This document shows positions 12,932 through 18,899 of a stretch of 64,000 nt of DNA, in pieces. The notes beneath the pieces were generated by a model. The model was not told the DNA's origin and searched no databases. It was given only the letters and a program-made list of their open reading frames with translations. A program made the translations under genes and the position numbers. Position 1 is the first letter of the stretch; each line of letters opens with the position of its first letter. The DNA comes from Nautiliaceae bacterium (GTDB lineage: Bacteria > Campylobacterota > Campylobacteria > Campylobacterales > Nautiliaceae), in assembly GCA_039831155.1 (NCBI GenBank), contig JBDONT010000011.1:32367-96366 (forward strand), in the 5' to 3' direction.

Positions 12932-13996
12932 ATGTTTGATTTTGTAAAACCTGGGGTATTAACTGGAAGTGAAGCTGCAAAAGTTATGGATGTTTGTAAA
13001 GAGAAAGGTTTTGCACTTCCGGCAATTAACGTAGTAGGGACAAATTCTGTAAATGCGGTAATGGAAGCTGCAAGAGAAGTAAATCTTCCTATTATCATTC
13101 AGTTTAGTAACGGAGGAGCTCATTTCTGGGCTGGAAAAGGGCTTGATAACGATAATCAAAAAGCTGCAGTTTTGGGTGCGATAGCAGGTGCTAAGCATAT
13201 CCATACATTAGCGGAGGCTTATGGAGTGCCGGTAATTTTACATACGGACCACGCGGCAAGAAAACTATTGCCTTGGATTGACGGGCTTTTAGAAGCCAAC
13301 GAAAAACATTATGAAAAATATGGAAGACCTCTTTTTAGTTCTCATATGCTTGATTTAAGCGAAGAACCACTTGAAGAGAATGTGGCAACTTGCAAAGAGT
13401 ATCTAAAAAGAATGAGTAAAATCGATTTACTTCTTGAAATTGAACTTGGAGTAACCGGTGGGGAAGAAGACGGAGTTGATAACACCGGAATTGATAACGC
13501 AAAACTTTACACTCAACCGGAAGATGTTGCTTATGCTTATAAAGAGTTAAGTGAAGTTAGCGATTTATTTACAATTGCTGCAAGCTTTGGAAATGTTCAC
13601 GGAGTTTATAAACCGGGACACGTAAAACTTGAACCGATTATCCTTAAAAATTCACAAGAGTATGTAAGAGAAAAATTTAATCTAAAAGATGAAAAACCTA
13701 TTAGATTCGTATTCCACGGAGGAAGTGGAAGTGAGCTTAGTAAAATTCACGAAGCTATTGATTATGGTGTCGTTAAGATGAATATCGATACGGATACTCA
13801 ATGGGCGTTTTGGAGTGGAGTAAAAGGTTATATTGAAAAATATCACGACTATCTACAAAGTCAAATTGGTAACCCGGAGGGTGAAGATAAACCAAACAAA
13901 AAATACTATGACCCTAGAAAATGGCTAAGAGAGGGTGAAAAAAGTATGAAAGCAAGAGTAATTGAAGCATATAAAGACCTTAGAGCTATCAAGTGA
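12932..13996 (+). CDS. fbaA: Fructose-bisphosphate aldolase class II
   Basis: HTDH, ELGVTGGEEDGVD, FGNVHGVY, FHGGSG, KMNIDTD, NKKYYDPR. Confidence 0.97.
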   Translation: MFDFVKPGVLTGSEAAKVMDVCKEKGFALPAINVVGTNSVNAVMEAAREVNLPIIIQFSNGGAHFWAGKGLDNDNQKAAVLGAIAGAKHIHTLAEAYGVPVILHTDHAARKLLPWIDGLLEANEKHYEKYGRPLFSSHMLDLSEEPLEENVATCKEYLKRMSKIDLLLEIELGVTGGEEDGVDNTGIDNAKLYTQPEDVAYAYKELSEVSDLFTIAASFGNVHGVYKPGHVKLEPIILKNSQEYVREKFNLKDEKPIRFVFHGGSGSELSKIHEAIDYGVVKMNIDTDTQWAFWSGVKGYIEKYHDYLQSQIGNPEGEDKPNKKYYDPRKWLREGEKSMKARVIEAYKDLRAIK

Positions 13997-16686
13997 TTTA
14001 TGAGTATATAAAAGAAGGGTTAAAAAACTCTTCTTTTTTTCTTCTGCCTTTTCCCACAGGAAGTGGTAAAACTTATGCCGTTAAGAAATTTATCAATTCC
14101 ACTTCAAAAAAAGTTTTATTCGTAACTCACTTACATCATCTTTTAGAAGATGTTTATAAAGATATTAAAAACAAAAAAGTACTTTATTTAAAAAGTGACG
14201 TCCAAAGCATTCTTGACGTTATAGATGAAAAATTTGAATTTGTAAATAGATATGAAGAGTTTAAAAACATTAAAAAATACTCCAAAATAAGGGGTGATTT
14301 GTATGATATTTTAAAAAATGACGTAAGTAAGTTGAAATTTAGGATTTTAAGCGATTCAAAAAGACTTCTCTCAAAAGATTTGACAAAACTTTTAAACGAC
14401 GCTAAAAAGCTTTTTCCTTCGGTTGAAATTGAAAAATACGATGTAGTAATTACTACCACCCAAAAACTTGCCAGAGGGTTTTTTAATTTTGAAAATAAAA
14501 CGTTTAAGAGTGTCTTTAAAGACGGTATTTTGTTCATTGACGAGTTTGACGCCCAAAAAGAGGTCTTAACGGATGTTTTTTGCGATTTAAAGGATGTTGA
14601 AATAATCGATTTGTTTTTAAGAATATATTTTGGCATTAATCAAAAAGAGTTTGTTAAAAGATATAACCCTTCCAAAGAGCTTCGTTTAAAATTTAAAACC
14701 CTTTATAAAAAAGGGGTTGACAGGTTTTATAGGGTCGATACTGTAGATAATTTTTACACTTTTGCTATGGACAGTTTTAACGGTGTTATGGAAAGTGGAA
14801 ATTTTATCGATAAAGAGCTTTTTGATGAAATTAAAAGTACTTTGAATTGGTTTTTCTCTTTTTCTAAAAGATATATTAATGAAATTGACGAATATTTAAG
14901 ATACGTTTTGGGTAAAAACAGGGATGAATTTTATTTGTATGCTTTAAAGAAAATTCTTTATCAGGATTTTGAGTTAGGGTCTTTAAAGGATGATTTTTAT
15001 TCTAAAGGTTTTAGTTTAATAAACGTCTCAAGAGAGGTTGATTCCGAAATAGAGAATTTTAAGTGTTATGATGTTTTTATAACGCCGGAAGGATTTTTAA
15101 AGAGTTTAAATGAATCTATGCAGATAGTTGGCATTTCTGCAACTTCCGAAATAGAAACGGTGGTAGGTAATTTTGACTTGGATTATTTGGAAGTTGATAA
15201 GTTTGAAGTGCCTTTAAAAAAACTTGAAGATAGAGAGATAATTCCTAAAGTGTTTGATGATGATTTGCATAAATGTATAAGAGAGTGTTTTTTAGGGGAT
15301 TTAAATGCTTTAGAGATAATGAATTTTATAAAAAGGGTAAACGAGTATGCTTTGAGAAAATTTATTCACTTTTTTTACGCTTATAAGGAGTTTATGGATA
15401 ATAACATTCATACCTTTTTGTATCTTGAGACGCCTTATTTAACTAATTATAAGAGTTTTTCAAAAGAGTTTAACGAACTTTTTATTCTTTTTTGTGCTGT
15501 TAACGGTTTTGAAAACTATTTAACCGAACTTAGAGATAAAAGAGAATTTAAAGCGGGTAAAAGAAGTTTTATCATAAGCAGTTATAAAAATATAGGGGTT
15601 GGGGTTAATCTTCAGTATGAATATAAAGGTTTTGTAAAAGATATAGACGCTATTTATCTTGGCGAAGTTACCAACTTAATTCCGGAAGATAAATTAAAAT
15701 CCGTTTTTATTTTGTATTCTTTATACGTAAACGGGTATATAGGAAGTTTTAAAAAATATTTTTTGGAAATTGTAAACGGAAACTTTAGGGGGTTTAAAGG
15801 ATTTTACGCTCAAACGGATGATTTTGTTGCAAATGTGGTTAAGGTGTTGATTCAGGCGGTAGGGAGGCTTTATAGAGCTAAAAACGATAAAATTTATGTT
15901 TATACGAATAAAGCAAACTCCGATATTATCGCTTCGTATGTCGGGGATGTTTATCTTCCAAAAGCTTTAAAGAGTTTAGCGGGAGTTGAGAGAGACAGTG
16001 TAAAACCCTCTTTTGAAACTAGGGTAAAAATTAAAAACTCCCATATAAAATCAAAATTTAGCTACTATAAAAAAGGGTTTGAAAATCCTAAGATAGTTTC
16101 ACAGTATAAAAAATTAAGAGAGGAGATTTACAATTCTTTTTCATTGGATGAAGAAAAAGAGTTTAATGAGAAGTTCGGAAGAGGGTATTTTTATAAACAA
16201 AAGGATGATTTTAGTTATCTTGAGATATCTTTTGAGAAAAAAAGAGGTTTTAGTGAATATAAGGAGTTTGAGTTTGAGGGGGAGTTTAAAAAGTTTGAGT
16301 GTAAAATAAAAGGAGAATATCTTCTTTTGCCTTATGCTTATGAGATATTTAAAGGGATTTTGGGAGAAAAGGTAGGAGAATATGTTTTTAATAACCGTTT
16401 TTCGATAAAACTTGAAGAGGTGGAAGAGTTTGAGGTTTTTGATTTTAAGTTTAAGGATAATTATATAGATTTTAAAAACTATTCCGATTTTAATTTAAAA
16501 AGAGATATAACGTCTTTAATAGAAAAAACGGCTTTGAAACTTAAAAGAGTAGGGGGTAAAAAGGCTTTTTTGATTAACGTCTTTGGAAAGGAAGGTAAGA
16601 TTTACGAGGTTGGGGATGTGGTTGTCGTGCCTTATTTAATAAAAGGGGATAAAGTTAATATGAAAGTGAGGGAGTGGTTTGATTAA
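13993..16686 (+). CDS. SF2 helicase fused to a C-terminal PD-(D/E)xK nuclease; DdmD-like
   Basis: Walker A LPFPTGSGKTY, Walker B FIDEFD, motif III GISATS, motif V SSYKNIGVGVNLQY, motif VI IQAVGRLYR; C-terminal FKGILGE..EVFDF..IDFKN. The DdmD assignment rests on recalled motif similarity. Confidence 0.78.
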   Translation: MIYEYIKEGLKNSSFFLLPFPTGSGKTYAVKKFINSTSKKVLFVTHLHHLLEDVYKDIKNKKVLYLKSDVQSILDVIDEKFEFVNRYEEFKNIKKYSKIRGDLYDILKNDVSKLKFRILSDSKRLLSKDLTKLLNDAKKLFPSVEIEKYDVVITTTQKLARGFFNFENKTFKSVFKDGILFIDEFDAQKEVLTDVFCDLKDVEIIDLFLRIYFGINQKEFVKRYNPSKELRLKFKTLYKKGVDRFYRVDTVDNFYTFAMDSFNGVMESGNFIDKELFDEIKSTLNWFFSFSKRYINEIDEYLRYVLGKNRDEFYLYALKKILYQDFELGSLKDDFYSKGFSLINVSREVDSEIENFKCYDVFITPEGFLKSLNESMQIVGISATSEIETVVGNFDLDYLEVDKFEVPLKKLEDREIIPKVFDDDLHKCIRECFLGDLNALEIMNFIKRVNEYALRKFIHFFYAYKEFMDNNIHTFLYLETPYLTNYKSFSKEFNELFILFCAVNGFENYLTELRDKREFKAGKRSFIISSYKNIGVGVNLQYEYKGFVKDIDAIYLGEVTNLIPEDKLKSVFILYSLYVNGYIGSFKKYFLEIVNGNFRGFKGFYAQTDDFVANVVKVLIQAVGRLYRAKNDKIYVYTNKANSDIIASYVGDVYLPKALKSLAGVERDSVKPSFETRVKIKNSHIKSKFSYYKKGFENPKIVSQYKKLREEIYNSFSLDEEKEFNEKFGRGYFYKQKDDFSYLEISFEKKRGFSEYKEFEFEGEFKKFECKIKGEYLLLPYAYEIFKGILGEKVGEYVFNNRFSIKLEEVEEFEVFDFKFKDNYIDFKNYSDFNLKRDITSLIEKTALKLKRVGGKKAFLINVFGKEGKIYEVGDVVVVPYLIKGDKVNMKVREWFD

Positions 16687-18079
16687 TAAAATAGTTTTTA
16701 ATTCGGACAAAAAAGAGCTTTTTAAAAAGTATTATTACTATAAAATGCAAAAATCAAAAGAGAATTTTAAAAAACTAAAAGAGATAAAAAAAGAGTTTTT
16801 CGAAGTAAGTGGGAATACTATTATAGTAGCTTCAAAAGAAAAATTAAACCTTCTAAAACTCTCTTTTAAAGAGTTTAATGAGCTGTGTTTTGATTCTCTT
16901 TTTAACATTTATCTTAAATCGTTAAATCAAGAGAATGCTTTTTGTGGTTATAGTGACGGATATTACACTCATTTTTCCAAAAATATTTATTTAAAATTTT
17001 TTTCTTTAAAAGGGGCTTTAAATATAGTAGCTAAAAAAATTAAAAAGAAAAAGTCTGCAAGATATACAGCTAGAGATTCTTTATATGTTTGTGAAAATGG
17101 GGAATACTCTTTTGTGCCTAATGATAAGCAGGTTAAATATTTGGGTTTTTACGATAAGGATTATTCAAAGACAAAGCAGTTTCATTTGATGAGGTTTATT
17201 GAAAAAAGTGGGGTTTGGTTTGAAGAGATTGAGTTTACGAAGTTTGTTTTCAGCAAGAAAGAAGGATTGGAAGATAAATTTAAAGACCTTGAAATAAAAG
17301 TTATAAATTACACCAAAAACATGGGTTATGAAAAAGAACTGATAGAAATGATAGAAAAAAAGGGAGCTAAAGTTGTAAAAAATTCTAATTTAATTCTTAC
17401 TATAACTCTTCCTAAAGAGAATTATTCTAAAAACGACCCTTATAAAAAAAAGGGTTTTCTTTCTCAAAACGTAACTGTTAAAACTCCTATTAATAAAAAT
17501 ACCGTTTCGGTTTTATTAAAAGAGCTTTTGATAAAAGAAGAGATAGAAAAAAATAGGTTTTTAATTCCTAAACATCTATTTGATGGATTTGAGTTTTATA
17601 TCCCTTATAAAGAGAAGCTTTACGGGATGAAGGTTTATAAGGATAGATTTGAGTTTGTGGTTGAAGATGATTATTATGACGCTTTAATGGTGGTTAAATA
17701 TGAAGATAATATCAATATAATAAAAACGACGCCTTATAGGAAACTTCCCAAACGTTTAAAAGAGATTGATTCTCTTTTGCAAAAGGGAGTAAAGATAAGA
17801 AATAAAAGCTACTCTTATCTTTATAATGATTTGATAGGAATAAACTATTTTGAAGAAGAAAACAGACTCTTATATTTTACAGGACTTTTACCAAACTCTT
17901 TACGTTCTACCTATAAAGGGCTTGTGATTAGGGAAATTGATGTAATTAAGGGTAGGGTTTTAAAGGAGGTGCTTGAATCTATGGATGAATTTTTTGTAAA
18001 TTTTAAAGAATTGACGGTTATGCCTTATTTTGCAAAATATATAAGGGAGAAGTATGAAATCCCCTATCGTGCCTTTTGA
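16679..18079 (+). CDS. Putative catalytically inactive prokaryotic Argonaute-like protein; DdmE-like
   Basis: TTG start with GGGAG RBS, overlapping the helicase stop; MID-pocket-like DPYKK..SQNVT..VLLKELLIK; PIWI-like C-terminus LTVMPYFAKYIRE. Confidence 0.62.
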   Translation: MINKIVFNSDKKELFKKYYYYKMQKSKENFKKLKEIKKEFFEVSGNTIIVASKEKLNLLKLSFKEFNELCFDSLFNIYLKSLNQENAFCGYSDGYYTHFSKNIYLKFFSLKGALNIVAKKIKKKKSARYTARDSLYVCENGEYSFVPNDKQVKYLGFYDKDYSKTKQFHLMRFIEKSGVWFEEIEFTKFVFSKKEGLEDKFKDLEIKVINYTKNMGYEKELIEMIEKKGAKVVKNSNLILTITLPKENYSKNDPYKKKGFLSQNVTVKTPINKNTVSVLLKELLIKEEIEKNRFLIPKHLFDGFEFYIPYKEKLYGMKVYKDRFEFVVEDDYYDALMVVKYEDNINIIKTTPYRKLPKRLKEIDSLLQKGVKIRNKSYSYLYNDLIGINYFEEENRLLYFTGLLPNSLRSTYKGLVIREIDVIKGRVLKEVLESMDEFFVNFKELTVMPYFAKYIREKYEIPYRAF

Positions 18080-18899
18080 GTTTAGAAGAAAGTTTTTTCA
18101 CATTAAAAGAGACGATTTGTTAAGACCTTTTGAGGGAAATAAGGCGAGAAAGTTTTATTATTTTTTTAAAAACGATTTTCCGGGTATTAAAAGGGTCGTT
18201 TCTTTCGGGTCTAATCAGTCTAACGCTTTTGGAGCGTTAAGCAGGCTTTGTAAGTTAAAAGGATGGGAATTTGTTTATTATACTTCCCATATACCTTCTT
18301 ATTTAAAAGAAAATCCCCAGGGAAATTATCTTTTGGCTTTAAAAAATGAAGCGAAAGTTATAGAATGCGGGCTTTATGGAGAAGAACTTAGAAGTTTTGT
18401 ACTTGGTTTAAAAGATAAAAAGACTCTTGTGATAGAAGAGGGTGGAAGGGTTAAAGAGAGTGAAGAGGGAATAAAACTTTTGGCAGATGAAATAAACGAC
18501 TATGCTAAAAAGCATAATTTAAAAGTTTTTTTACCGAGTGGGACCGGTACGACTGCCTATTTTCTTTCAAAACATCTTGATGTTGAGGTTATAACGACTC
18601 CGTGTGTTGGGGATGAAAATTATTTAAAAAAACAGTTTGAGTGGCTGGGTGGTGGAAAAATTCCCACTGTTTTACCTCCTAGAAGGAAATATCATTTCGG
18701 AAAACTTTATTTGGAGTTATATAAAATATGGAAAGAGTTAAAAAAGAGTGGAATTGAATTTGATTTATTATATGACCCTATAGGATGGGATACGATTTTA
18801 AGGCATAATCTTAAAGATATTTTGTATATTCATCAAGGTGGGCTTATAGGGAATGAGAGTATGTTAAAAAGGTATGAAAGAAAATTCGAATTTGTGTAG
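18054..18899 (+). CDS. ACC deaminase / D-cysteine desulfhydrase family PLP enzyme
   Basis: IKRDDL, GNKARK (PLP lysine), GSNQSNA, SGTGTT, FDLLYDP, IHQGG. Confidence 0.9.
   Translation: MKSPIVPFEFRRKFFHIKRDDLLRPFEGNKARKFYYFFKNDFPGIKRVVSFGSNQSNAFGALSRLCKLKGWEFVYYTSHIPSYLKENPQGNYLLALKNEAKVIECGLYGEELRSFVLGLKDKKTLVIEEGGRVKESEEGIKLLADEINDYAKKHNLKVFLPSGTGTTAYFLSKHLDVEVITTPCVGDENYLKKQFEWLGGGKIPTVLPPRRKYHFGKLYLELYKIWKELKKSGIEFDLLYDPIGWDTILRHNLKDILYIHQGGLIGNESMLKRYERKFEFV

Follow-up and report, generated by a model that had tools for sequence, protein, structure and literature searches.

The closest described relatives of the two-gene locus analysed here are the DdmDE systems of V. cholerae (PDB 8u0j, 8u3k, 9ezy, 9bgk) and L. 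casei (PDB 9iw3, 9ixm, 9ix4), in which the Argonaute-like DdmE is reported to bind 5'-phosphorylated DNA guides of 12-14 nt and to eliminate plasmids jointly with the helicase-nuclease DdmD. Published accounts present an insertion in the PIWI domain of DdmE (INS/DID) as the recruiter of an auto-inhibited DdmD dimer, whose auto-inhibitory interface is described as formed by the INS and Arch domains of DdmD in both species. In the two solved complexes the insertion docks on DdmD HD2 and is reported as the principal interface with DdmD, and its deletion from V. cholerae DdmE abolished activity. The PAZ-like/L1 region of DdmE is described as also touching HD2 in both complexes, the PAZ substitute (C-APAZ) being a hairpin of about 35-40 residues. 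Short pAgo systems (SPARTA, SPARDA, SiAgo) comprise MID-PIWI proteins with a catalytically dead PIWI domain and APAZ-effector partners. In ApsAB of E. coli ST38, an anti-plasmid system, the Argonaute-like ApsB works with the helicase-nuclease ApsA; the paper describing it assigns ApsA and DdmD to one broad family and finds ApsB and DdmE to be dissimilar in sequence (PMC11096173). DdmDE is thus already known, and the new variant described here is a small form of both proteins, lacking the INS of DdmE. We consider it probable that this miniaturised DdmE-family Argonaute and its miniaturised DdmD constitute a compact DdmDE-type defence cassette, horizontally acquired by a vent Nautiliales bacterium.

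The mini-ddmDE locus and its insertion site

The cassette and its flanking genes are arranged as follows.

12932..13996, + strand: fba, class II fructose-bisphosphate aldolase, left flank (Pfam F_bP_aldolase, E=1.9e-83)
13993..16686, + strand: mini-ddmD, predicted 897-aa SF2 (XPD/DinG-like) helicase fused to a PD-(D/E)xK nuclease
16679..18079, + strand: mini-ddmE, predicted 466-aa DdmE-family (long-C) catalytically inactive Argonaute
18054..18899, + strand: gene for a PLP-dependent enzyme, right flank (weak PALP match)

The gene order, D then E, is that of V. cholerae; unlike the V. cholerae system, this one resides in a vent member of the Campylobacterota (Nautiliales), outside any pathogenicity island. 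The host genome, from a hydrothermal vent, is streamlined (1.5 Mb), and the cassette lies within a tightly packed same-strand run of housekeeping genes whose stops and starts overlap. Mini-ddmD begins with GTG and overlaps the fba stop by 4 nt, while mini-ddmE, an open frame that starts with TTG behind a GGGAG at 16670-16674, shares 8 nt with the end of mini-ddmD and its final 26 nt with the start of the PLP-enzyme gene. No intergenic space is left to hold a promoter of the cassette's own, and no defence or mobile-element genes neighbour it in the window (the whole 64,000-nucleotide stretch that was analysed).

The two flanking genes mark the insertion site and stand outside the system. They adjoin each other, with 15-30 bp between them, in three of the four related genomes examined; in the present genome, 4.1 kb carrying mini-ddmDE has been inserted precisely between them, at an otherwise empty site. 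A DdmE profile finds matches in only 5 of 401 Campylobacterota genomes, the present host included, and this rarity, together with the empty site in relatives, points to horizontal acquisition. Two further Campylobacterota genomes contain DdmE-like open reading frames truncated to 231 and 247 aa. A second small pair is present in a metagenome (P0007, 501 aa, and P0040, 908 aa; 33-36% and 35% identical to the window proteins, respectively), with the same 8-nt overlap of the D and E genes, and ddmE likewise adjoins a DdmD helicase-nuclease gene at L001, L005 and G191.

Family membership and size reduction of mini-DdmE

Mini-DdmE matches no family in Pfam (above cut-off), NCBIfam or PADLOC, and searched as a single sequence it has no match in the PDB. 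Its description as an orphan in an initial annotation of the sequence therefore stands for these three libraries, but fails against an exhaustive HMMER search, which returned 28 proteins at E<=1e-3. The Pfam Piwi model (PF02171) is silent in mini-DdmE, anywhere in its genome, and in 10 DdmE-like relatives, placing the DdmE family beyond the reach of that model. When mini-DdmE and 15 relatives were combined (profile A1, 16 sequences), DdmE alone was matched in the PDB, with E-values of 1.3e-70 for V. cholerae (profile positions 10-623 of 627) and 1.6e-46 for L. casei. A profile of three small forms only still reached V. cholerae DdmE (E=7.8e-4; nothing else <0.1), and hhalign joined the small-form profile to a 672-aa DdmE from another genome of the same order over 450 columns (probability 96.1%, E=3.2e-9), spanning mini-DdmE from end to end (residues 1-458).

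The structure prediction and comparison with DdmE and other pAgos suggested by the same annotation were also carried out. An AlphaFold2 model (30-row alignment; pLDDT 77.6, pTM 0.74) shows the bilobed Argonaute fold, with an N lobe and a MID-PIWI lobe, at low confidence over residues 88-150. Among the Foldseek matches listed, the top six are six DdmE chains (E 2.8e-14 to 1.1e-11, TMq 0.51-0.63), followed by other Argonautes and PIWIs (E>=1.4e-4, TMq<=0.39); the model was built on an alignment of DdmE relatives, so this agreement in fold cannot count as evidence separate from the sequences. Together, profiles and model support the proposed Argonaute-like character and place mini-DdmE in the DdmE ("long-C", catalytically dead) Argonaute family, within which we file it as an architectural variant and not as a typical member. 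The predicted subdivision of the protein, all on the + strand, is given below.

16679..17257: N-terminal lobe, residues 1-193, by profile mapping onto L. casei DdmE limits (N 1-71; L1 72-114; PAZ-like hairpin / C-APAZ 115-147; L2 148-193)
17258..17572: MID, residues 194-298, 105 aa, by alignment to the V. cholerae DdmE MID
17435..17536: putative guide 5'-end pocket motif DPY...Q...E...K (Y255, Q263, E282, K286)
17573..18076: PIWI-like domain, residues 299-466, by alignment, model and Foldseek
18011..18049: C-terminal motif LTVMPYFAKYIRE, residues 445-457 (contains K453, E457)

The N-lobe boundaries, which follow the reported L. casei DdmE order N-L1-PAZ-L2-MID-PIWI, are precise to about +/-5 residues. 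By this mapping MID starts near residue 194, in keeping with the approximately 190 preceding residues counted previously, and the first 193 residues are colinear with N, L1, PAZ-like and L2 of full-size DdmE in both the alignment and hhalign. MID itself is modelled at pLDDT ~86-94 over most residues. L1 and the PAZ-like region (residues 88-150) fall below 50, so the retention of these subdomains is argued from alignment, in which 33 residues (115-147, also at pLDDT <50) correspond to the L. casei PAZ segment.

Miniaturisation, as originally claimed, is evident: at 466 aa, mini-DdmE compares with 583-688 aa among the full-length relatives found, with 715 aa in L. casei, and with the 677-690 residues of deposited V. 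cholerae chains, which may include tags. Its partner has 897 aa, against 1190-residue chains in V. cholerae and 1192 aa in L. casei. Both proteins are thus about 25-30% smaller than their characterised homologues, with cuts in nearly every domain. N, L1, L2, MID and the first half of PIWI are each 20-30% shorter than in V. cholerae DdmE, and MID is likewise shorter than the 123-134 aa of full-size relatives (177 in one). The largest single loss, overlooked in the initial annotation, is that of the PIWI insertion: the INS/DID position holds 25 residues (358-382), compared with 88-119 in INS-bearing DdmE proteins, the DdmE profile match in this genome breaks at profile positions 468/529, and the 107-residue insertion (510-616) by which L. 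casei DdmE is reported to touch HD2 is absent. The N, L1 and L2 segments are shortened, as had been proposed, but the reduction reaches nearly all domains rather than these alone. INS/DID is also missing from 5 of the 13 longer proteins in profile A1, and so is not universal across the sequence family.

The proposed proximity to short pAgos holds for length, but not for design. Mini-DdmE shares with short pAgos a similar size, a dead PIWI domain and the need for a partner effector; unlike them, it has an N-L1-PAZ-L2 lobe homologous and colinear to that of DdmE in place of a MID-PIWI-only build, its partner is a DdmD helicase-nuclease with no APAZ fusion, and its nearest relatives in both sequence and fold are DdmE proteins. 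Assignment as a short pAgo was rejected on the basis of the 193-residue N lobe and the DdmD partner. The combination of an Argonaute-like protein with an SF2 helicase-nuclease is also that reported for ApsAB. Compared by published motif only, the Y-x3-K...QG...K signature of ApsB (PMC11096173) does not fit mini-DdmE, which has Y255-K-K-K-G and Q263-N.

The guide pocket and the partner nuclease

The MID pocket motif noted in the initial annotation falls at exactly nt 17435-17536, encoding residues 253-286 (DPYKKKGFLSQNVTVKTPINKNTVSVLLKELLIK). In V. cholerae DdmE, the guide 5'-end pocket has been defined experimentally as Y363, Q376, E401, K405, K674 and E678 (10.1101/2024.05.10.593530), and is described as taking a flipped 5' nucleotide and a Mg2+-bound 5' phosphate, K674 and E678 contacting the Mg2+. 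In the profile alignment all six are kept, as Y255, Q263, E282, K286, K453 and E457. D253, Q263, E282, K286, K453 and E457 are invariant in 16/16 aligned family members, while Y255 is absent from the columns listed as at least 90% conserved; the match exceeds chance. K453 and E457 lie in LTVMPYFAKYIRE, consistent with the PIWI/DdmE-like C-terminus first suspected. Likewise, no G-x-D tripeptide occurs downstream of residue 286, and within residues 299-466 the 16-sequence alignment shows only one acidic position that is invariant or nearly so, E457, which belongs to the MID pocket. PIWI of mini-DdmE thus seems to have no DEDX slicer tetrad, as predicted from the sequence at the outset and as described for the DdmE family (10.1101/2024.05.10.593530). 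Full-length homology, the complete pocket and the missing slicer residues are all shared with V. cholerae DdmE, as may be a small PAZ-like region, to judge by the alignment.

The helicase-nuclease partner postulated alongside the Argonaute is, on homology, identified as DdmD. Searched singly with phmmer, mini-DdmD has L. casei DdmD as its top PDB match (E=5.2e-20), followed by V. cholerae DdmD (E=3.6e-10), both colinear; profile A3 matches DdmD at 1.3e-153 and 1.3e-125. Walker A (GSGKT, residues 23-27) and motif II (DEFD, 183-186) are present, and mini-DdmD keeps all the residues invariant in 33 sequences, both in the helicase part (P21, T22, G23, K26, D183, E184, S382, A383, T384, Q621, G624, R625, R628) and in the nuclease part (E792, E814, D817, D826, K828). 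The latter correspond to V. cholerae E1059, E1082, D1085, D1100 and K1102, and the helicase motifs are the same. These features support a DdmD homologue whose ATPase and nuclease residues are intact; it differs from V. cholerae DdmD in that INS (82 residues vs median 108), Arch (162 vs median 239), the HD2 stretch facing the DdmE INS (75 vs 102-105) and the nuclease domain are all shorter.

A candidate mechanism and its competitors

By analogy with the V. cholerae and L. casei systems, mini-DdmDE may bind guides, target DNA, recruit DdmD and act against plasmids. Mini-DdmE would hold a short 5'-phosphorylated ssDNA guide, its 5' nucleotide and Mg2+ clamped by the six pocket residues, and would pair with complementary invading (plasmid) DNA in the absence of cutting. 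The displaced strand would then pass to mini-DdmD, which would move 5'->3' on ATP while its PD-(D/E)xK nuclease degrades the DNA. As the INS/DID docking domain is missing, contact between the two proteins must differ from that in the solved complexes, and could involve the L1/PAZ-like surface, for example, or DNA alone. The lost INS, the shortened HD2 docking stretch, the low-pLDDT residues 88-150 and the lack of room for a promoter of the cassette's own count against a DdmDE-type defence cassette. A more specific proposition, that this is a naturally minimised yet complete Argonaute effector, with N, L1, PAZ-like, L2, MID and PIWI in 466 residues, which would work with an equally compressed helicase-nuclease in the absence of the DdmE INS that current models regard as the hand-over interface, is offered tentatively, at somewhat short of even odds.

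The same losses could mean that the pair is functional but rewired, with mini-DdmE making no stable protein-protein dock with DdmD: either the D-loop that it makes would itself be the site where DdmD loads, DdmD forming no auto-inhibited dimer, or mini-DdmE would be a specificity or licensing factor only. The absence of the DdmE INS, the contracted DdmD INS and Arch and the reduced HD2 docking stretch all agree with such rewiring, as does the position of the L. casei authors that INS recruits DdmD rather than activating it. However, the PAZ-like/L1 region retained in the alignment may preserve a reduced direct interface, and the tight joint shrinkage and preserved gene coupling seen in two lineages that share about 35% identity suggest co-evolving partners; we regard rewiring as unlikely. 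Decay of a full-size DdmDE into a non-functional remnant, shrunk by deletions within a streamlined 1.5-Mb genome, might be suspected from the 25-30% of length lost in both proteins, which includes a domain reported as essential in V. cholerae, from the lack of promoter space, and from the truncated DdmE-like frames elsewhere in the phylum. Yet both frames are intact, and dN/dS against a MAG copy (94% identical) is 0.115 for mini-ddmD and 0.100 for mini-ddmE (0.04-0.06 in flanking genes); mini-ddmE is a real gene under purifying selection. In addition, the losses are spread through all domains of a still colinear alignment, no catalytic or pocket residue that is invariant in either family has been lost, and the compact architecture, shared with a pair only ~35% identical, has persisted across long divergence. 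Decay is accordingly very improbable. Least credible of all is a chromosomal DNA-transaction module (serving repair or natural-transformation control, for example), co-expressed with central-metabolism genes and devoid of a defence role. Its packed housekeeping surroundings and lack of defence or mobile neighbours would suit such a module, but its patchy occurrence (absent from the same site in three of four close relatives; 5/401 genomes in the phylum) is typical of accessory defence genes, and the characterised homologues are all described as eliminating plasmids.

With a DdmDE-type cassette as the preferred reading, nature supplies a pair under selection in which INS is gone and the DdmD domains for dimerisation and docking are reduced, so that the contacts truly required for hand-over and activation can be tested directly. 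Mini-DdmE also illustrates how much an Argonaute can shrink while keeping its full N lobe, reaching approximately the size of a short pAgo with the architecture of a long one. If the system is indeed minimal and INS-free, then DdmD recruitment and activation can use an L1/PAZ-like surface or a D-loop alone, and the vent pair would represent a minimal, probably heat-tolerant module for DNA-guided DNA targeting; a small vent protein that may bind DNA under the direction of DNA guides could have practical interest. Because standard annotation libraries miss mini-DdmE, small DdmDE systems are probably under-counted in defence surveys, above all among streamlined genomes from vents. An RNA library yields contigs on both genes that are identical to the window, although possible DNA carry-over means that transcription is not proven, and a vent DNA run from a separate study contains the entire cassette in a variant form of about 95% identity.

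A DdmE-family Argonaute and its DdmD partner

The 466-aa protein is a DdmE-family Argonaute within a compact DdmDE cassette, which is set in a closely packed series of genes on one strand of the window. The two cassette genes are:

13993-16686, forward strand: mini-ddmD, encoding mini-DdmD (P0002, 897 aa); GTG start, 3' end overlapping mini-ddmE by 8 nt
16679-18079, forward strand: mini-ddmE, encoding mini-DdmE (P0001, 466 aa); TTG start, GGGAG at 16670-16674

On its upstream side, mini-ddmD shares 4 nt at its start with the stop of a class II fructose-bisphosphate aldolase gene (fba; Pfam E=1.9e-83). Downstream, the last 26 nt of mini-ddmE (18054-18079) also form the first codons of a gene for a PLP-dependent enzyme.

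Taken singly, mini-DdmE reached the cut-off of none of the Pfam families (two rows, at E 0.05 and 0.11, are at chance level), matched no PADLOC or NCBIfam family and, by phmmer, no PDB sequence (best E 0.97); the Pfam Piwi model had zero matches across the whole 1.53-Mb genome. A word-indexed protein search returned only a 94% copy with mini-DdmE alone and seven proteins with the alignment as query, while exhaustive phmmer against 1.84 billion representatives gave 28 proteins at E<=1e-3. Among these are P0006 (466 aa, 94% identical) and the metagenomic P0007 (501 aa), which matches end to end (E=6.5e-31; identity 36% across the stretches that match and 33% in a MAFFT alignment); these two and mini-DdmE are referred to as the three small forms. 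The remaining matches, mostly of 600-690 aa or fragments, match the last 90-130 residues of mini-DdmE.

A family alignment of mini-DdmE with 15 of the 27 other matches (the 13 left-out sequences being all of 414 aa or shorter) is colinear across its full length, and the resulting 16-sequence profile retrieved DdmE only from the PDB (V. cholerae, E=1.3e-70, profile positions 10-623 of 627; L. casei, E=1.6e-46). As long proteins dominate this profile, the test was repeated with the three small forms alone, which matched V. cholerae DdmE (E=7.8e-4); no other entry scored below E=0.1. In hhalign, the small-form profile aligned over residues 1-458 with a DdmE of 672 aa encoded by a different genome in the same order (probability 96.1%, E=3.2e-9).

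A first AlphaFold2 model of mini-DdmE, from 16 alignment rows, was weak (pLDDT 57.7), with residues 1-196 poor; a second, from 30 rows, reached pLDDT 77.6 and pTM 0.74, and fell below 50 only at residues 88-102 and 107-150. Structure prediction had been proposed as a check in the initial annotation, and in a Foldseek search of the PDB with the 30-row model six DdmE chains rank first (E 2.8e-14 to 1.1e-11, TMq 0.51-0.63), a match that rests on a model built from the alignment of DdmE relatives, so that fold and sequence evidence are not independent. Next come Aquifex, Kurthia, Clostridium, Marinitoga and Thermus Argonautes together with animal PIWIs (E of at least 1.4e-4, TMq at most 0.39), and the ranking with the 16-row model is identical.

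The helicase-nuclease partner named in the initial annotation is supported by the upstream protein, which matches DdmD alone among PDB sequences: six distinct sequences were matched, all DdmD (L. casei, E=5.2e-20; V. cholerae, E=3.6e-10), and the five matching stretches, which run from Walker A through the nuclease, are colinear. A DdmD profile of mini-DdmD and 32 of 36 homologues (three low-coverage matches and one weak 839-aa match left out) matched PDB DdmD at 1.3e-153 and 1.3e-125. The helicase motifs GSGKT (residues 23-27), DEFD (183-186), SAT and QxxGR are present, and the nuclease residues E792, E814, D817, D826 and K828 correspond to V. cholerae E1059, E1082, D1085, D1100 and K1102. 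One 1132-aa DdmD homologue (P0041) is named 'TorA maturation chaperone TorD' by one source, which is probably an annotation error.

Other Argonaute classes were considered for mini-DdmE and rejected. A short pAgo identity is at odds with an N lobe that aligns with full-size DdmE and with a partner that is DdmD; for the PIWI-RE/ApsB type, the ApsB MID motif, as given in PMC11096173, is unmatched; and for the Pfam Piwi class, the Piwi model is without match.

Guide pocket and proposed function

The motif DPYKKK..SQNVT..LLKELLIK, from which the initial annotation had read an Argonaute MID pocket, lies exactly at residues 253-286 of mini-DdmE (nt 17435-17536); no G-x-D was found after it, and the C-terminus is, as noted there, LTVMPYFAKYIRE, so that the original observation stands in full. 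According to two reports on V. cholerae DdmE, Y363 and K405 hold the flipped 5' nucleotide of the guide, Q376, E401, K674 and E678 contact Mg2+ at the 5' phosphate, and alanine substitutions abolish plasmid elimination (10.1101/2024.05.10.593530; 10.1101/2024.07.20.604412). Counted along the printed profile-PDB alignment, in which chain 8u3k_E carries the numbering of the papers, these residues map to the DPY, Q, E..K and K...E profile columns, and their equivalents in mini-DdmE are Y255, Q263, E282, K286, K453 and E457. D253, Q263, E282, K286, K453 and E457 are invariant in all 16 sequences; in the 30-row alignment, fragments included, K453 and E457 are still invariant, and conservation is at least 90% for D253, Q263, E282 and K286.

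The suggestion that the protein is slicer-dead holds up, in that E457 is the sole conserved acidic residue of its PIWI part and, because this residue belongs to the guide pocket, there is no sign of a slicer tetrad. The DdmE family is likewise described as lacking the tetrad in one report (10.1101/2024.05.10.593530). By homology, mini-DdmE would most likely bind short 5'-phosphorylated DNA guides and, once loaded, recognise foreign DNA complementary to the guide while leaving it uncut, and the displaced strand would most likely be passed to the helicase-nuclease mini-DdmD.

Reduction of both partners and the missing INS

Sizes of DdmE and DdmD regions. DdmE relatives are the 11 full-length relatives in the alignment; DdmD medians are those of 30 long homologues. 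Domain limits follow L. casei (10.1101/2024.10.09.617351), were set by eye from HMMER alignments to profile positions, then scripted to residues, with an accuracy of about 5 residues.
DdmE N: mini-DdmE 71 aa; relatives 89-105 aa
DdmE L1: mini-DdmE 43 aa; relatives 62-78 aa
DdmE PAZ-like: mini-DdmE 33 aa; relatives 33-45 aa
DdmE L2: mini-DdmE 46 aa; relatives 59-65 aa
DdmE MID: mini-DdmE 105 aa; relatives 123-134 aa, 177 in one
DdmE first PIWI half: mini-DdmE 59 aa; relatives 77-97 aa
DdmE INS: mini-DdmE 25 aa; INS-bearing forms 88-119 aa
DdmE last PIWI half: mini-DdmE 84 aa; relatives 82-89 aa
DdmD HD1a: mini-DdmD 66 aa; median 84 aa
DdmD INS: mini-DdmD 82 aa; median 108 aa
DdmD Arch: mini-DdmD 162 aa; median 239 aa
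DdmD HD2: mini-DdmD 248 aa; median 326 aa
DdmD nuclease: mini-DdmD 230 aa; median 280 aa

Region by region, these sizes indicate that both partners have shrunk throughout. The initial annotation had placed the trimming in N, L1 and L2, each of which is indeed shorter than in full-length relatives, but the shrinkage extends beyond them to MID, the first PIWI half and INS. In HD2 of DdmD, the stretch with the helical element has 75 residues in mini-DdmD versus 102-105 in five long homologues compared; this element of DdmD is a wedge in DdmE, with INS on one side of it and the PAZ-like part on the other.

Unlike V. cholerae and L. casei DdmE, mini-DdmE is without INS/DID, the domain inserted in PIWI through which DdmE, in both complexes that have been solved, mainly contacts DdmD (10.1101/2024.07.20.604412; 10.1101/2024.10.09.617351). 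Deletion of INS is reported to inactivate the V. cholerae DdmDE system, and a 2026 review places the DdmE-DdmD hand-over 'at the INS domain'. Because INS is missing and the docking and dimerisation parts of DdmD are reduced, the DdmE-DdmD contact is not transferable from the known systems. A complex prediction with DdmD residues 420-897 and full DdmE scored 0.00 without controls, and is evidence neither way.

Five further DdmE homologues (P0016, P0017, P0022, P0025 and P0030), of which four are full-length proteins of about 590-670 aa, have 19-26 residues where others have 88-119. This INS-less group is at odds with the INS conservation within long-C pAgos stated by Loeff et al., in whose report DdmE orthologues were gathered at 60% identity or above (10.1101/2024.05.10.593530). 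A maximum-likelihood tree of 22 DdmE-like proteins, quickly built and unrooted, unites the three small forms (SH-aLRT 94) and nests them within a group of INS-bearing proteins (SH-aLRT 95); a separate group (SH-aLRT 97) holds the five INS-less proteins and six unscored for INS. That the small forms lost INS independently is a suggestion only, because this tree lacks V. cholerae and L. casei DdmE, and the careful search is unfinished. Among the titles and abstracts listed by literature searches on DdmE, DdmD, DdmDE, long-C and Argonaute, none describes a small or INS-less DdmE; supplementary data may mention one, and Fig. S6 of 10.1101/2024.05.10.593530, on how far INS is conserved, and PMC11096173 Supplementary Data 8, on DdmD/ApsA homologues, which fall outside the scope of that negative, may already list such homologues.

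Second pair, insertion site and occurrence

The small DdmDE pair is no one-off, and is unlikely to be a product of decay. Scans of genome contigs and of metagenome contigs gave one locus each. The metagenomic P0007 is carried by a 1998-bp contig on which a DdmD-like C-terminus precedes it with the identical 8-nt overlap; this C-terminal piece matches the end of P0040 (908 aa) at 98% identity, and P0040 in turn aligns with mini-DdmD across 98% of its length at 35% identity. By size, the 36 DdmD homologues comprise two as small as these, 33 of 1118-1208 aa and one of 839 aa. A Nautiliales MAG copy of the locus (L001) retains the gene order of the window, and dN/dS between the two is 0.115 for ddmD and 0.100 for ddmE, against 0.04-0.06 for three flanking genes.

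In three of four related genomes (two from the same genus and one from the same family) a gap of 15-30 bp separates fba from the PLP-enzyme gene, and the 4.09-kb pair is therefore a precise insertion; its junctions contain no spare intergenic DNA, and its GC is 0.28-0.29 versus 0.32-0.35 in the surroundings. In the fourth relative (G034, L014 2596-3894), an unrelated reverse-strand gene of 432-487 aa occupies the junction, which seems to be a recurrent insertion point. By eye, the junction sequences suggest a PLP-enzyme N-terminus about ten residues shorter than in an empty-site relative, so the start of this gene was apparently reshaped when the pair inserted.

Part of the cassette is present in 11 public runs, the organism-labelled ones being hydrothermal-vent or epibiont metagenomes; contigs of four of the 11 were compared with the window. 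Two RNA-library runs of one sample (X1 and X2, vent metatranscriptomes) gave contigs with 0-1 differences on ddmD (14223-14770, 15427-15685, 15901-16532) and on ddmE (16993-17516, 17516-17808, 17790-18065), which are compatible with, and no proof of, transcription, DNA carry-over being the alternative; a promoter serving the pair would presumably be that of the fba operon. In these runs, bins with little or no cover (e.g. 16712-16945) are uninformative, and depth differences between fba and the cassette are unusable for expression ranking. A 4228-nt contig of a DNA run from another study spans 13909-18136 with 213 differences. One contig of run X3 joins 13990 to 18138, skipping 4147 nt, with a shorter side of only 21 letters at 90% likeness, and hints weakly at best at an empty-site allele. 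In X5, a vent DNA metagenome, both ends of the cassette contig (13909, 18136) lie no more than about 85 nt from the borders of the cassette, and the flanks are on separate contigs; a population in which some members have the cassette and others lack it would fit this picture, contig ends alone being no demonstration.

The DdmE profile has matches in 5 of 401 Campylobacterota genomes, that of the window included, and mini-DdmE as query in 2 of 201 genomes of the order. Among the matched genomes, G191, of the same order, carries a full-size pair (1182 + 672 aa). Two others hold only ORFs of 231 and 247 aa (G459:C8:50903-51499 and G485:C196:112-735; loci L009 and L010) that match the C-terminal third of DdmE, and these may be remnants or contig-end fragments.
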